A DNA stretch of 64,000 bases, taken from Coraliomargarita sp. (lineage in GTDB: Bacteria; Verrucomicrobiota; Verrucomicrobiia; Opitutales; Coraliomargaritaceae). Location of the stretch: the NCBI GenBank assembly GCA_965216325.1, contig OZ244160.1, positions 1,024,001 through 1,088,000 of the forward strand, written 5' to 3'. Within the stretch, counting starts at the first letter, position 1. The number at the start of each line of letters is the position of its first letter. The translations under genes were made by a program, and so were the position numbers. The notes under the pieces were generated by a model. It did not search any database. It was not told where the DNA came from and worked only from the letters and a program-made list of their open reading frames with translations. Positions 27,899 to 47,176 of this stretch are shown one piece after another.

Positions 27899-28915
27899 AT
27901 GAAACTACACACACTTTTGATGTCGGCATGTCTTAGCGCTGCCGTGCTAGCAACTCCTGCCTCTGCGAATCAAGTTGATGCAGGCAGCTATGATGACGAT
28001 CTTCGTGAGATGCTCGAAGTGCTACGTTCAGACCTTAATTCACACAAGGTTGAGGTGATCAACGCGGCGCTGAAGCTGAGTGACGAGGAAGCAGAAATCT
28101 TCTGGCCGATCTATAAGGCTTACGAGGTTGAACTCGCGGAACTAGTGGAGGATAAGCTTCGTCTAATCGGTGATTATTATCAGCTTTACTACGCGGATGC
28201 CAAACACGACGACAGTTGGGATGCTGTTGCAGATCGTTCCATTCGTGGCCGGCAGAATCGCTTAGCACTGTGGCAGGAGTATCATGGTAAAATTAGTGCT
28301 GCGCTCTCACCATATCGCGCGGCTCAGTTCCTCCAACTCGAAGGCCAAATTGCATTGCTGGTCGATCTCAGCATTGCATCAGAGCTTCCAAATATTGGCG
28401 CGCCTGAAACCACCGCATCTCTCGTTCCAACAAAGATTGAAGCAGTTAAGGTGAAGATGAGTGCCACAGTCGATGGAATCGATCACGATAACCGAGTTCT
28501 TGTGTTGCGTGGTGATCATGACAAGTTGACTACCCTGAACGTTCACGACGATGTAGAACGCTTTGATGAGATCGAACTTGGTGACCTGGTCAGCGTTGAA
28601 TACCAAATTGCAGTCGTTGCTGAACTGCGTGCACCAACAGTTACTGAAATCGAAGAGCCCTTAGTGATTTTGGCGGGAGGCGCTAAGACTGATGAAACTG
28701 CTGCTCCGACTGCAGGTGTCGGTCGTGTCATACGTGCGGTCTGTACGATTGAAGGCTTAGACCGCCAATCTCAGATGGTCAGTTTGAAGGGACCAATGGG
28801 GAAGTATTTCAGCGTAAAGGCTTCTGACCCGAAGCGCCTGACACAAGTCTCAATTGGTGATACAGTAGTCATCACCTACTGTGAGGCACTTGCAATAGGA
28901 ATTGAGAAGTTGTAG
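27899..28915 (+). CDS. Secreted hypothetical protein (helical N-domain plus duplicated beta-rich C-domain)
   Basis: Signal peptide; LKLSDEEAEIFWPIY; internal repeat ATVDGIDHDNRVLVLRG...GDLV / CTIEGLDRQSQMVSLKG...GDTV. Confidence 0.8.
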   Translation: MKLHTLLMSACLSAAVLATPASANQVDAGSYDDDLREMLEVLRSDLNSHKVEVINAALKLSDEEAEIFWPIYKAYEVELAELVEDKLRLIGDYYQLYYADAKHDDSWDAVADRSIRGRQNRLALWQEYHGKISAALSPYRAAQFLQLEGQIALLVDLSIASELPNIGAPETTASLVPTKIEAVKVKMSATVDGIDHDNRVLVLRGDHDKLTTLNVHDDVERFDEIELGDLVSVEYQIAVVAELRAPTVTEIEEPLVILAGGAKTDETAAPTAGVGRVIRAVCTIEGLDRQSQMVSLKGPMGKYFSVKASDPKRLTQVSIGDTVVITYCEALAIGIEKL

Positions 28916-28918
28916 CAT

Positions 28919-29971
28919 TTAGCTGATGGCCAGTTCAAGTTGCTCGGGGCCAGCGTGGGCCTCGGCAAATCGGACTCCAATGCCCATTAGGCGCACGGGA
29001 TGTCCACTGCGCCCCCATGCATCGGTCAGGAGGTGGCTATAGCGTTTTAAATCAGGCTGACTTCCGGCACACTCAGCCGTCGTGAGTCGGAAGTCGCTAA
29101 ACTTTAGCTTTAGGACTAGTTTAGCTATTTGTCGATCGGGTGCATTGCTGCGTAGATCTTCTATGAGCTCTTTATACTGGCGTTCCAACTGCTCCAGGCA
29201 GGTGCCAAGGCTTTCTAAGTCCTGCCTAAAGGTGTGCTCGATACTAAGTGTTTTGCGGATACGGCTTGGGTCAACGGGACGTTCGTCGACGCCGCGGCAA
29301 AGTTGATATAATTCCATGCCGAAGCTTCCAAAGTGATTCACTAGCTCGGCCTGACTATACTCTTGTAAGTCTGCACAGGTTTCGACGCCGAGCTTTGACA
29401 AACGTTCTGCACTCTTTGGGCCTACTCCCCAAATTTTGCGAACGGGTAGATTCTGCATGAACCCGCGCACATGCGAAGGGCTTACGATGCACTGTCCGTT
29501 TGGCTTATTCCAGTCACTCGCGATTTTTGCGATCAACTTATTGGGGGCGATACCCGCAGATGCGGTCAGTTGCGTTTCGGTGTAGATGTCCTTGCGAATG
29601 GATTCTGCAATTTCAGCACCCGCTTGCTTTAGATGGCTGACGTCTAAATAGGCTTCGTCGAGTGAGAGTGGCTCGATCAACTCTGTATAGCGTGCGTAGA
29701 TTGCTCGAATTTGCTTCGAAACTGCTCTGTAGAGCTCAAACCGAACCGGGAGGATGACGAGCGGCGGACACAGCTTGCGTGCTTCAAACACAGGCATTGC
29801 TGAGCGCACTCCAAACTCGCGGGCAGGGTAGTTGCATGTGGTTAACACGCCGCGCCCGGATGCCCCGCCGACTGCGAGAGGTCGTCCAGTCAGGTCAGGA
29901 TGTTCTCGCATTTCCACAGCTGCATAGAAGCAGTCCATGTCAATGTGGATAATTCGTCGGATTCGGCTCAC
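28919..29971 (-). CDS. dinB: DNA polymerase IV
   Basis: IIHIDMDCFYAAVE, LSLDEAYLD, AKIASDWNKPNG. Confidence 0.97.
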   Translation of the reverse strand: MSRIRRIIHIDMDCFYAAVEMREHPDLTGRPLAVGGASGRGVLTTCNYPAREFGVRSAMPVFEARKLCPPLVILPVRFELYRAVSKQIRAIYARYTELIEPLSLDEAYLDVSHLKQAGAEIAESIRKDIYTETQLTASAGIAPNKLIAKIASDWNKPNGQCIVSPSHVRGFMQNLPVRKIWGVGPKSAERLSKLGVETCADLQEYSQAELVNHFGSFGMELYQLCRGVDERPVDPSRIRKTLSIEHTFRQDLESLGTCLEQLERQYKELIEDLRSNAPDRQIAKLVLKLKFSDFRLTTAECAGSQPDLKRYSHLLTDAWGRSGHPVRLMGIGVRFAEAHAGPEQLELAIS

Positions 29972-44730: not shown

Positions 44731-45489
44731 TTACTGGGTCAACGCCGCCTCGATCGCTGCGTTCTGAAGTTCGTTGAGTTCAAGGATGCCCGTTGCGCCT
44801 AGCGCGAGGAGTTCGTCGAGTTGTTCGCGATCGAAAGTCGCTTCCTCGCCGGAACTTTGCACTTCAACATATTTGCCAGCGCCGGTCATGACTAGGTTCG
44901 CATCAACCGTCGCATCCTTGTCTTCGATGTAGTTGAGGTCGAGCACGGAGACATCCTGATAGACCCCGACCGAGATTGCGGCTACTGAGTCGTTAAATGG
45001 ATTCTCTTCGAGCTCACCCGCTGCGATCAATTTGCGCACGGCAATCTGTGCCGCAACGTAGGCGCCCGTGATCGATGCGGTGCGCGTCCCGCCATCAGCT
45101 TGGAGCACATCGCAATCGATCCAAATGGTCTTGCCGGGCAGTTTCTTCAGATCGAACACCGCACGCAGTGATCGACCGATGAGGCGCTGAATCTCGATCG
45201 TTCGACCGTCGGCTTTGCCTCGGGAAATGTCGCGTTGTTTGCGGTCCAGCGTGCTGTAAGGAAGCATCGAATACTCGGCTGTCATCCAGCCGCCCTCGAC
45301 ACCTTGCGCACGCATCCAACCCGGCACACGCTTATCAATCGAGGCCGCACAAATCACACGGGTATTGCCAAAGCTCACCAGCACCGATCCCAGAGCGTGT
45401 GGAGCAATGCCAGTCTCAAATTTGACCGGACGGAGTTGATCTACCGCACGTCCATCCGGGCGGGTGAAAACAGTTTGTTCTTCAGACAT
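44731..45489 (-). CDS. rph: Ribonuclease PH
   Basis: GWMTAEYSMLP, EIQRLIGRSLR, CDVLQADGGTRTASITGA, DLNYIED. Confidence 0.97.
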   Translation of the reverse strand: MSEEQTVFTRPDGRAVDQLRPVKFETGIAPHALGSVLVSFGNTRVICAASIDKRVPGWMRAQGVEGGWMTAEYSMLPYSTLDRKQRDISRGKADGRTIEIQRLIGRSLRAVFDLKKLPGKTIWIDCDVLQADGGTRTASITGAYVAAQIAVRKLIAAGELEENPFNDSVAAISVGVYQDVSVLDLNYIEDKDATVDANLVMTGAGKYVEVQSSGEEATFDREQLDELLALGATGILELNELQNAAIEAALTQ

Positions 45490-45551
45490 TGTGTAAGGGA
45501 TACGAGATGCGTGATACAGGACGCGAGTGTTTAATGGATAGGATAGAGACG

Positions 45552-45581
45552 AACCGTTAATTTACGTGAATTAATGTTAAT
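45552..45581 (+). repeat. Left 30-bp inverted repeat flanking the 45577-45942 ORF
   Basis: AACCGTTAATTTACGTGAATTAATGTTAAT; 29/30 identical to the reverse complement of 45962-45991. Confidence 0.9.
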
Positions 45582-45942
45582 GCTTAGTCTCGGAGCTGTG
45601 CTGTTCTGGCTTTAAAGTTCTGATGCCAGCGATCAGAGTAAAGAAACCTCCGAAGGCTAAAAACAAAGAAGTGATGTGCAGCGATTGCCACCCTTCTTTT
45701 GCCAAATGGGAGAGTCCGTTCGCTTCCCGCATTTCGTCAACCAGCATAGTTTCCATGTTCTTCTCAAGCAGTATTGCTGGATATTTCGCTCTGACCCGTT
45801 CCTCTGCCTTACTTTTTGCACATATTGTGTATGAGCTTATATTTTCAGCTACGCGAATTGGAGCGAACAGAGCATAGTAAGCTCCAACTGACATCTGGAT
45901 AACACCAATTATTATAATGCTGATTGCAGATTTCATCATCAT
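45577..45942 (-). CDS. Hypothetical two-TM membrane protein inside an inverted-repeat-bounded cassette
   Basis: 121-aa ORF with N- and C-terminal hydrophobic segments; AT-richer than its neighbours. Confidence 0.65.
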   Translation of the reverse strand: MMMKSAISIIIIGVIQMSVGAYYALFAPIRVAENISSYTICAKSKAEERVRAKYPAILLEKNMETMLVDEMREANGLSHLAKEGWQSLHITSLFLAFGGFFTLIAGIRTLKPEQHSSETKH

Positions 45943-45961
45943 TTAGATAGAAGTCCGTTTA

Positions 45962-45991
45962 ATTAACGTTAATTCACGTAAATTAACGGTT
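45962..45991 (-). repeat. Right 30-bp inverted repeat
   Basis: ATTAACGTTAATTCACGTAAATTAACGGTT. Confidence 0.9.
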
Positions 45992-46006
45992 TAAAGCATT
46001 CGAGTC

Positions 46007-47176
46007 CTAGTCCTCTTGATCCGCAACCAGGGCTGGTAAATACTTTTCTCGGGCTAATCGCCAGAAAACGAGGAAGAAGGCTGTGAGCGGGATTGCCAAC
46101 ACCATGCCGAGGATACCGCCGAGCGCAGTGCCCCAGAAGAAGATCGAGAATATCAATAGCATTGGCCCCATGCCTGTTTTATCGCCCATCACGCGCGGGG
46201 TGAAAACGTAATCCGTTAGTAACTGGCCGATAACGAAGACGATCGCACATAATCCGATCAAAGTCATGCCACCACCTTCCTGAAAGTAGGCCATTGGCAG
46301 CACTGTCATAATACCGATCATGGTGCCGAGGTAGGGGATGATATTCAGCAGTCCGAGGAAGAGGCCGAGAAGGATACCGAACTTAAGGCCAACCAGGCCG
46401 AAGCCAACGGCAAGCACGATGCCGAGCAGCAAGCCGATGATGATCTGACCACGAAAAAAGGCGATGAGGATGTCGCTGAATTGGCGAGCAAGGAAGACCA
46501 GATCCTCACGACGATCTTCAGGCAGGAAGCCGAGTTGCTTCTCGATGTCGCCCCAGACATTGCGGTCGCCATTTAGAATGAAAAATAGGTAAATAGGCAC
46601 GACCGCGTAGGCAGCCACTTTACTAAAAATACTACCGAAGAAGCCTCCAAGTGTGCCGAGTGAGGTCTGTAGCTTGAAGAGTGCTGCTTTGATCGCGCTG
46701 GTGTTTTCACCGACAAGGTCTTGCAGGTAGATATCAGGATCCTGCCCCAACTTCTCACCCAACCAGGCCCACGCCTCCGGTGCTTTCGATTTAAGAACGC
46801 CAAGGATGTTTTGCTGTAACTCTGGCAGGTGGCGAATTAGGGCGGTAACTTGCTCCAGAACGAAGGGTACGCAGTAGGCCGCAAAGGCCGCCAGGACCAT
46901 AATTACCAAAAAATAGAGTAAAATGATGCCTTGGAGGCTACTCAAACGCGTGCGGGTCTCGACGAACGCCACGATTGGACGCAACAGGGTGGCCATGATC
47001 GCTGCGATTGCGACGGGGAGCAGCACGTCTTGAAAGGTGGTGACAAAGTTACGCAGCAACACGAAGGTGTAAAACGCCGTAACCAGCAGTATCACTGTCG
47101 CCAGAGCCGTCAGTCCTGCGGCAACCATGCGTTTTTGAGTCGGCGAAAGGAACGAAGAGGGCGATTCAGAACTCAT
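46007..47176 (-). CDS. AI-2E family transporter (UPF0118)
   Basis: [33 protein letters not shown]. Confidence 0.92.

Follow-up and report, generated by a model that had tools for sequence, protein, structure and literature searches.

Repetitive extragenic palindromic (REP) elements form single G+C-rich hairpins with a 5' GTAG. In REPIN/RAYT systems, REP doublets occur together with a single-copy REP-associated Y1 transposase (PMC3116915; PMC3337134; bioRxiv 10.1101/2022.05.22.493013). In the dif/pdif modules of Acinetobacter plasmids, XerC/XerD sites flank single-gene modules (PMC6449649; PMC7399989; PMC13141974). Integron cassettes, attC sites and clusters of attC sites lacking integron-integrases (CALINs) were described by Cury et al. 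(2016, PMC4889954). Here we describe an element of 440 bp (30-bp end, 380-bp interior, 30-bp end; no strand assigned) at positions 45552..45991 (G000 1069552-1069991) of a 64-kb window, which is the stretch 1024001-1088000 of the Coraliomargarita sp. genome (G000:C1:1024001-1088000; G000 is a single contig of 3.06 Mb). Its closest described counterparts are REPIN/RAYT for behaviour and miniature inverted-repeat transposable elements (MITEs) for shape; pdif modules and integron cassettes are alike only superficially. With high confidence, the element is a cargo-bearing member, lacking the nuclease gene, of a repeat family tied to a resident gene for a GxxExxY (PDDEXK_3) nuclease, and members of this family differ in presence and cargo at orthologous loci.

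The ends of the element are two arms of 30 nt, complementary at 29 of 30 positions (97%) and 380 nt apart. The left terminal inverted repeat (45552..45581, plus strand), on the stop-codon side of the enclosed open reading frame (ORF), consists of the 10-bp units AACCGTTAAT, TTACGTGAAT and TAATGTTAAT. The right one (45962..45991, minus strand), on the start-codon side, reads AACCGTTAATTTACGTGAATTAACGTTAAT from its outer end inward and has 0 mismatches to the pattern; the single mismatch between the arms sits in the left arm (T at 45575). An earlier analysis based on the letters of the window alone (the sequence-only reading) had placed inverted 30-bp sites at exactly these ends, which was confirmed. 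Its implication that the pair is unique was not: a 28-mer of the repeat, present twice in the window (0.00 copies expected, 100 dinucleotide-preserving shuffles), was found in G000 in 29 copies at up to 3 mismatches and in 54 copies at up to 6 (reversed control: 0).

All pairs and ends were counted under a strict rule that requires an AACCG terminus. Under this rule G000 contains 18 paired elements and 14 lone ends. The end consensus, pooled from 122 ends of G000, two congeners (G001 and G002) and 80 public loci, is AACCGTTAATnnACGTnAATTnACGTTAAT, with 90-100% conservation at the specified positions and ∼40% just past position 30. A family end has exactly 30 nt with a fixed AACC terminus and is composed of AAC and three 10-bp units CGTNAATTNA, giving a periodicity of 10 bp. 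ACGT and AATT are each self-complementary, and the array therefore reads alike on both strands and takes on the appearance of two 11-bp arms around a 6-bp spacer (11-6-11). This tyrosine-recombinase look is most likely a by-product of the self-complementary sub-repeat. In the window element the half-site arms differ solely at the outermost 2 of 11 positions, and the central TACGTG is identical in the two sites, which are inverted. Identical spacers are not a family feature; within a pair, the 6-bp spacers of the two partners may differ freely at both outer positions. All 29 places examined in G000 are intergenic and overlap the ends of flanking ORFs by at most 20 nt; most copies fill short spacers between co-directional genes. 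The three bases just outside each family end tend to be TTG. A target-site duplication was found at 0 of 73 elements for k ≥ 3 (k = 2: 6 observed, 4.5 expected), and a flanking direct repeat is absent at the window copy, as the sequence-only reading had noted.

A full-length element with the same ends as the window element is located outside the window (G000 1944185-1944687, 503 bp) and encloses a gene for a GxxExxY protein of 127 aa (1944265-1944648, minus strand; Pfam PF13366, PDDEXK_3, E = 2.3e-33). Both elements share the same layout, a single ORF read from one end into the other; otherwise the window element has only the ends in common with the gene-bearing form and no PDDEXK_3 gene inside. 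The distribution of repeat and gene was compared in 41 Puniceicoccaceae/Opitutales genomes around and including G000. The motif was present in 10 of these, G000 and 9 of 24 others of the same family, and in 0 of 16 from other families of the order (reversed controls: 0). A GxxExxY orthologue of at least 61% identity was found in 10 of 10 site-bearing and 0 of 31 site-free genomes (best match 49%). The orthologue of G001 is split over two contig ends, that of G011 is in two pieces, and the match in G006 starts at residue 31. The gene occupies one orthologous locus, with the same pair of neighbours, in all 10 genomes. Family ends were present on both sides of the orthologue in 9 of 10 genomes, and the two contig pieces of G001 have one each. 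None of eight GxxExxY paralogues (at most 48% identity) has family ends. The protein is a full-length member of the GxxExxY family (TIGR04256, which we take to be its NCBIfam name) with the invariant G-x-G-x-x-E-x-x-Y, D and K columns; across 20 aligned proteins G26, G28, E31, Y34 and the putative active-site residues D70 and K82 are invariant. The PDB, searched by sequence and by profile, yielded no relevant match to the nuclease. PDDEXK_3 genes are common and were present in 59 of 121 sampled Verrucomicrobiota genomes. The function of PDDEXK_3 is listed as 'Unknown' in Steczkiewicz et al. (2012, PMC3424549).

Other PDDEXK_3 genes have repeat ends of their own. The second PDDEXK_3 gene of G000 (246429-246782) lies within 246362-246861 between different inverted ends of 31 nt, GCCACAAAAAACACGAAAAAGCACAAAAAAC, which again hold three 10-bp units. 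For a survey of the phylum, 30 PDDEXK_3 loci were used, of which 29 had enough flank to be scored at a threshold of 16. An inverted repeat of 20-43 nt hugging the gene reached a score ≥16 at 23 of 29 loci, compared to 1 of 29 shifted controls. These sister elements measure ∼420-470 bp, and their ends consist of an (A)ACC terminus and three or four units of 7-10 bp, including CACGAAA, CACGGAGG, ACAGGATT and CGCAGAG. The units are non-palindromic and the ends are not readable as 11-6-11. One sister repeat, AACCACGAAANACACRAAANACACGAAA, is likewise dispersed: three genomes have 32, 84 and 16 copies of it, the reversed control none. Its copies form tight inverted pairs (69-82 bp) and co-oriented runs. 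Three observations support a mechanism involving the nuclease: repeat and gene co-occur exclusively, unrelated PDDEXK_3 genes have ends specific to their own families, and the D and K columns are invariant. We also observed that the repeat of the second G000 gene is made of three CACRAAAAAN units and that a third, lone copy of it lies at 1021584, ∼2.4 kb before the window start.

Pairs of the family enclose either 56-136 bp of non-coding DNA or one gene, and most are non-coding. Among 74 unique paired elements, palindromes without cargo had lengths of 28 bp (n = 1), 38 bp (n = 11) and 48 bp (n = 1). No element measured 49-85 bp, and the longer members fell into classes of 86-196 bp (n = 40), 264-273 bp (n = 2) and 344-503 bp (n = 19). 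Cargo was recorded for the 21 unique elements ≥264 bp from G000, G001, G002 and 80 public loci. Here, a GxxExxY ORF with 55-100% identity to the G000 protein was found in 12 elements, an LMWPc-type ORF in 2 (one locus, two species) and the window ORF in 1; 6 of 21 had no convincing ORF. Gene-bearing forms with family ends thus encode only PDDEXK_3, LMWPc or the orphan ORF of the window. The presence of this unrelated, membrane-type gene between family ends hints that repeat pairs can carry or swap cargo. A search for the 30-mer in the genome and its relatives, which the sequence-only reading had suggested as a check, returned a dispersed family whose pairs hold varied cargo.

Differences between orthologous loci were observed. 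At G000 584216-584243, a bare palindrome of 28 bp is present, AACCGTTAATT-TACGTT-AATTAACGGTT. The same locus holds an LMWPc cassette in G001 (401 bp) and G002 (398 bp), in which the ORF starts 7 nt past one end and has its stop codon within the other. This LMWPc gene is found nowhere in G000, and five outgroup genomes have no site at the locus. The three genomes are nearly equidistant, and the bare palindrome may precede or follow the cassette. In the spacer between rph and the AI-2E transporter gene, where the window element is located, a family pair is present in 4 of 5 relatives (G001, 96 bp; G002, 86 bp; G006, 151 bp; G023, 273 bp) and none in G003. The interiors in the five genomes measure 380 bp (G000), 36, 26, 91 and 213 bp, and the ORF is present in G000 only. 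Alignments of the G001 and G002 interiors to that of G000 were scattered and unconvincing in either orientation. A comparison with relatives, proposed by the sequence-only reading as a search for an empty site here, revealed shorter pairs without the ORF in four relatives and no pair in G003. At another locus, G002 carries a whole element where the spacer of G000 (1659967-1659992) is uninterrupted.

Contigs of four metagenomes (X5-X8; strains 95-99% identical) carry the window cassette in the reference orientation. The left site is bridged by contigs of X6 and X8, the right site by contigs of X5, X7 and X8, and some metagenome contigs end at the left site. A strand-change joint is not listed in the X5-X8 contigs, which drop rare variants. 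Two joints that skip 379 nt (X5 and X8; sides of 31-33 nt) were considered as excision at this locus and rejected; they fit cargo-less copies at other loci.

The cargo ORF of the window element (121 aa; 45577..45942, minus strand) is the sole long ORF inside it. The left repeat contains the stop codon of this ORF (45577-45579), and 19 nt separate the ATG (45942) from the right repeat (45962). The neighbours are rph, encoding RNase PH (44731..45489, minus strand; PF01138, PF03725), with its ATG 62 nt outside the left repeat, and the gene of an AI-2E family transporter, a permease (46007..47176, minus strand; PF01594), with its stop codon 15 nt outside the right repeat. All three genes are co-directional. 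The G+C content is 0.41 for the whole element, 0.35-0.47 along its interior and 0.50-0.59 in the flanks. These data bear out the sequence-only reading on the single enclosed ORF and its position between the sites, the AT-rich interior and the co-direction with both neighbours, the identity of which was confirmed by Pfam. Its statement that no recombinase gene is nearby also held, with zero matches to PF00589, PF00239 and PF01797 within the window. An Rfam scan of 45000-46500 gave nothing relevant (one chance match at 16 bits). A simple promoter/terminator scan gave 3 promoter-like matches (1.2 expected), none positioned to drive the cargo ORF; on the minus strand, no match lay both upstream of this ORF and outside it.

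The product of the cargo ORF has a hydrophobic stretch at either end. It matches no Pfam family and has zero relatives in the genome_contigs or metagenome_contigs collections; atlas matches were only to unnamed clusters, at 0.90-0.91. Among 5.8 billion protein clusters its sole relative is a form of 74 aa, which has the same ends and has lost an internal stretch in frame. A public contig of 2.5 kb codes for the ORF minus ∼47 codons, in frame, between both hydrophobic ends. The gene thus varies by deletion between very close strains and yet stays in frame. The survival of the frame and of both hydrophobic ends in this 47-codon deletion suggests a coding constraint on the ORF.

Further site copies show particular arrangements. 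At G000:C1:1540485-1550972 (L262:2485-12972), 13 co-oriented variant sites, AACCGTTMATTACGTGAATGGACGTTAAT, are one base shorter than the family consensus. The small minus-strand genes that they separate are NTP_transf_2 + HepT/HEPN pairs (n = 3), DUF433 + DUF5615 pairs (n = 2), one DUF4258 gene and one Unstab_antitox gene; an IS110-family transposase gene is located at the end of the array. The sites lie in a mosaic of other intergenic repeats, and the region looks like a cassette array with no integrase nearby. At three sites (G000 1434041-1434066, G000 622936-622961 and the right-hand site of L071 in G002) an insert of 26 nt, GCTCCGCCATCTCCGCAAAGCTTCGT and relatives, splits the site, and the break falls precisely at the junction of AATT and NACGT within a unit. 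At other places in G000, related 26-mers follow ATT or TTT (e.g. 2935117, 302221, 880660, 2521203, 136095, 476953 and 2717646). The inserts may mark the unit position at which DNA is opened. Two identical 154-bp elements with identical flanks, 1454 bp apart (G000 462983-463136 and 464437-464590), are a recent segmental duplication including an element, not two insertions. Outside G000, three paralogous short copies (L126, L127 and L142) with interiors 84-93% similar are present on one contig of another genome.

Among the matches listed, exact public matches to the site are almost all from Puniceicoccaceae/Opitutales (Coraliomargarita, Thalassobacterium, Lentimonas and metagenome-assembled genomes (MAGs)), with single ones in MAGs labelled Pontiella, Luteolibacter, Lentisphaeria and Desulfovibrionales. 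MAGs with the labels Kiritimatiellota, Verrucomicrobiales, Lentisphaeria and Desulfovibrionales contain exact copies (L098, L079, L111 and L115); in L098, from a MAG labelled Pontiella sp., an element of 439 bp encloses a GxxExxY gene with 55% identity to the G000 protein. Copies in such distant taxa could reflect horizontal spread or mis-binned contigs.

Like REPIN/RAYT, the family consists of short palindromic extragenic repeats arranged as inverted doublets with a variable spacer, with one resident single-copy enzyme gene that is flanked by the repeat, keeps to a single locus and shows vertical inheritance across genera, and with dozens of gene-less copies per genome. Unlike REPIN/RAYT, the flanked gene is a PF13366 GxxExxY gene of the PD-(D/E)XK fold and not an HUH Y1 transposase (0 of 12 PF01797 genes are flanked), three 10-bp units in an array make up the repeat, and some doublets carry unrelated genes. 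With MITEs and their parent insertion sequences (IS), the family shares terminal inverted repeats of 30 nt, short gene-less copies beside a long gene-bearing one and presence or absence as a whole unit; it differs in lacking target-site duplications, in a long copy without a recognised transposase and in short interiors that are mostly unrelated. The likeness to pdif modules lies in single genes between inverted, 28-bp-like sites of 11-6-11 look with no adjacent recombinase gene. Unlike pdif sites, the family sites are chromosomal, dispersed and mostly non-coding, they are 30-nt periodic arrays with bare forms of 28, 38 and 48 bp, their arms are near-identical and not distinct XerC and XerD halves, they have non-palindromic sister families, and a nuclease gene co-occurs with them. 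Promoter-less single ORFs set against a site-like repeat, and the co-oriented array between toxin-antitoxin genes at 1.54 Mb, recall integron cassettes. Here, however, the attC sites beside the three intI genes of the genome are G+C-rich and unrelated in sequence, the family units are scattered singly, and the heptamer order, GTTAATT...AATTAAC, is the reverse of R''/R' in an attC, a site with R''-L''...L'-R' boxes that ends in GTTRRRY. A literature search, which did not cover subscription journals, found no paper describing GxxExxY/PDDEXK_3-linked repeat elements.

Based on these comparisons, we consider the window unit to be, with fair probability, a non-autonomous, cargo-swapped member of a REPIN/RAYT-like dispersed repeat family tied to the resident GxxExxY nuclease gene. 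In the mechanism that we propose, the nuclease would bind the sub-repeat arrays, or a hairpin or cruciform formed by two inverted arrays, and would cut in register with the 10-bp unit. Cutting would move or reshape gene-less copies in trans, as a RAYT does with REPINs. Rejoined outer parts would leave palindromes of 28, 38 or 48 bp, which differ by whole units, and foreign DNA could end up between the arrays. From the patterns described above we infer the nuclease as the acting enzyme, the position of the cut and the route by which the orphan gene entered.

Several points weigh against this interpretation. Binding or cutting of the repeats by the nuclease is something we infer from sequence comparison, and we know of no PD-(D/E)XK protein that moves DNA by itself. 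Position alone would also link a gene to its flanking repeats, and the co-occurrence in 10 genomes spans six genera of one family, which are not phylogenetically independent. A remnant of the nuclease gene was not found by tblastn in the 440 bp of the window element, and the cargo ORF, being an orphan, might not be a genuine gene. Unlike in a recently amplified MITE, the non-orthologous interiors of G000 are all dissimilar to one another. Furthermore, 20 of 27 elements of G001 and G002 have a G000 counterpart at the same place (4 absent, 3 unclear); with positions mostly shared, movement must be rare, and change is real but slow. Finally, the perfect 11-6-11 bare site, the hybrid-looking flanking sites and the 13-site array would also fit a conservative site-specific recombinase, which makes such an enzyme a live rival.

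G000 encodes 10 tyrosine recombinases (PF00589), three of them above the integron-integrase cut-off (TIGR02249), and no serine recombinase. Two are Xer-like (615776 and 2453746), the presence of which is uninformative because Xer is near-universal. The three intI genes (0.81, 2.77 and 2.85 Mb) lie neither in the window nor beside a site copy, and no recombinase gene adjoins any site copy. A look beside the other copies, by which the sequence-only reading had hoped to find the enzyme, thus yielded none; the nearest recombinase genes belong to an IS91-like repeat and to integrons. The integron regions (G000 811172-815486, 2757000-2767437 and 2846000-2855016) hold short cassette ORFs and G+C-rich attC-like spacers beside intI, and two of the arrays contain group II intron reverse-transcriptase ORFs that are 465 aa long and near-identical. 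The cassette spacers beside intI at 811172-812557, as read by eye, are G+C-rich and unrelated to the family sites (a crude attC finder reported none). A G+C-rich element of 2.55 kb is present in three copies, 99.6-99.8% identical (815791-818344, 1299806-1302356 and 2841892-2844445), each coding for a tyrosine recombinase and, after it, a protein of 367 aa that resembles IS91-type transposases as judged by eye. Its recombinases were rejected as the site enzyme, the IS91-like repeat being unrelated to the sites. IS200-like Y1_Tnp (PF01797) genes number ∼12 (e.g. 28154-29173, 588776-589837 and 605902-606921), with three near-identical copies of 339-353 aa. The Y1 transposases were likewise rejected, as 0 of 12 loci are flanked by sites and the nearest exact half-site is at least 2.5 kb away.

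In a site-specific cassette system of a Xer- or integrase-type tyrosine recombinase, as the sequence-only reading had suggested as its second possibility, the inner-arm site of a circular cassette would recombine with the palindrome AACCGTTAATT-NACGTN-AATTAACGGTT to yield two hybrid sites, and excision would restore the bare palindrome. Indeed, the bare site at 584216 is exactly outer arm, 6 bp and outer arm, with a cassette at the same place in two relatives. Cargo ORFs tightly fill the interior with the stop codon within the site, as in integron cassettes, and the 13 co-oriented variant sites lie between toxin-antitoxin genes (G000 1540485-1550944). Integron integrases, three of the 10 PF00589 genes of G000, are found in 9 of 10 site-bearing and 8 of 31 site-free genomes. 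G023, however, has sites and no intI, and the link to GxxExxY (10 of 10 and 0 of 31) is far tighter. Moreover, conservation covers the third 10-bp unit up to 30 nt, bare forms measure 28, 38 and 48 bp, the outer positions of the presumed spacer vary freely within pairs, sister families share the layout with non-palindromic units, no copy has a recombinase gene beside it, serine recombinases are lacking and true attC sites are G+C-rich. We therefore regard this explanation as distinctly unlikely, and the 30-nt ends in 10-bp units, the range of bare forms, the non-palindromic sisters and the co-occurring nuclease no longer agree with the dif/pdif-like architecture that had been assigned to the sites. 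What remains of the proposed cassette-capture unit is its membership in a larger system, in which other pairs hold other cargo and one locus is bare or occupied by a cassette; the tyrosine-recombinase basis probably does not. An invertible on/off switch, the first suggestion of the sequence-only reading, in which recombination would turn the ORF around with respect to transcription reading through from the AI-2E gene, is highly improbable. It would account for the inverted sites with identical central TACGTG and for an ORF with only 19 nt and the repeat as room for its own promoter, of which the simple scan found none. All X5-X8 contigs, however, are in the reference orientation with no strand-change joint listed, although a minority form is possible, identical spacers are not shared by the family, and most pairs hold 56-136 bp of non-coding DNA, in which an inversion would have nothing to switch.

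The terminal inverted repeats, the intergenic placement and the whole-unit presence or absence would also be expected of MITE- or REPIN-like elements moved in trans by a conventional transposase, either a Y1 enzyme or one since lost, with GxxExxY as the commonest passenger. The 12 Y1_Tnp loci of G000 and the similar interiors of L126, L127 and L142 fit such an origin. Target-site duplications, though, are lacking (k ≥ 3), none of the Y1 genes is flanked by sites, a passenger is not expected at one locus with ends in all 10 site-bearing genomes and in these only, and unrelated PDDEXK_3 genes would not each own sub-repeat ends; we consider this origin quite improbable. Alternatively, the repeats may be functional host sequences, selected and immobile, that serve as protein-binding arrays on one helix face or as hairpins in operon mRNA, the ORF being a chance or new one. 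The 10-bp period, the filling of short spacers between co-directional genes, the stability of positions across species (20 of 27 shared), a pair just upstream of rph in two genera and the orphan nature of the ORF speak for it. Gains and losses between close species, a fixed outer terminus with the strict inverted pairing typical of element ends, and an ORF that keeps its frame and hydrophobic ends in the 47-codon deletion variant speak against it, and we think it unlikely. A host function describes effects and is compatible with the proposed origin from a nuclease-linked family. It is likewise doubtful, in our view, that the PD-(D/E)XK (GxxExxY) nuclease runs a gene-capture system with the inverted sub-repeat pairs as its dispersed docking sites. 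In such a system, DNA bounded by inner units would be joined into, or released from, a palindrome cut in register, and unrelated genes lacking promoters (the orphan ORF, the LMWPc gene that relatives have at 584216 and perhaps the toxin-antitoxin genes at 1.54 Mb) would be exchanged among many intergenic sites in operons. If true, this would parallel the integron in scattered form and with another enzyme chemistry.

In practical terms, the repeats break short-read assemblies, as seen from contigs that end at the left site. With the nuclease-linked family described here, the GxxExxY/PDDEXK_3 protein gains a concrete, testable candidate as its DNA partner, namely the 30-nt array built from three 10-bp units. 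Doublets able to hold other genes, and a locus that is a bare palindrome in one species and a cassette in its relatives, raise the question of host-gene movement. REPIN/RAYT-like behaviour with a different enzyme fold would make persistent, vertically inherited repeat populations a convergent feature.

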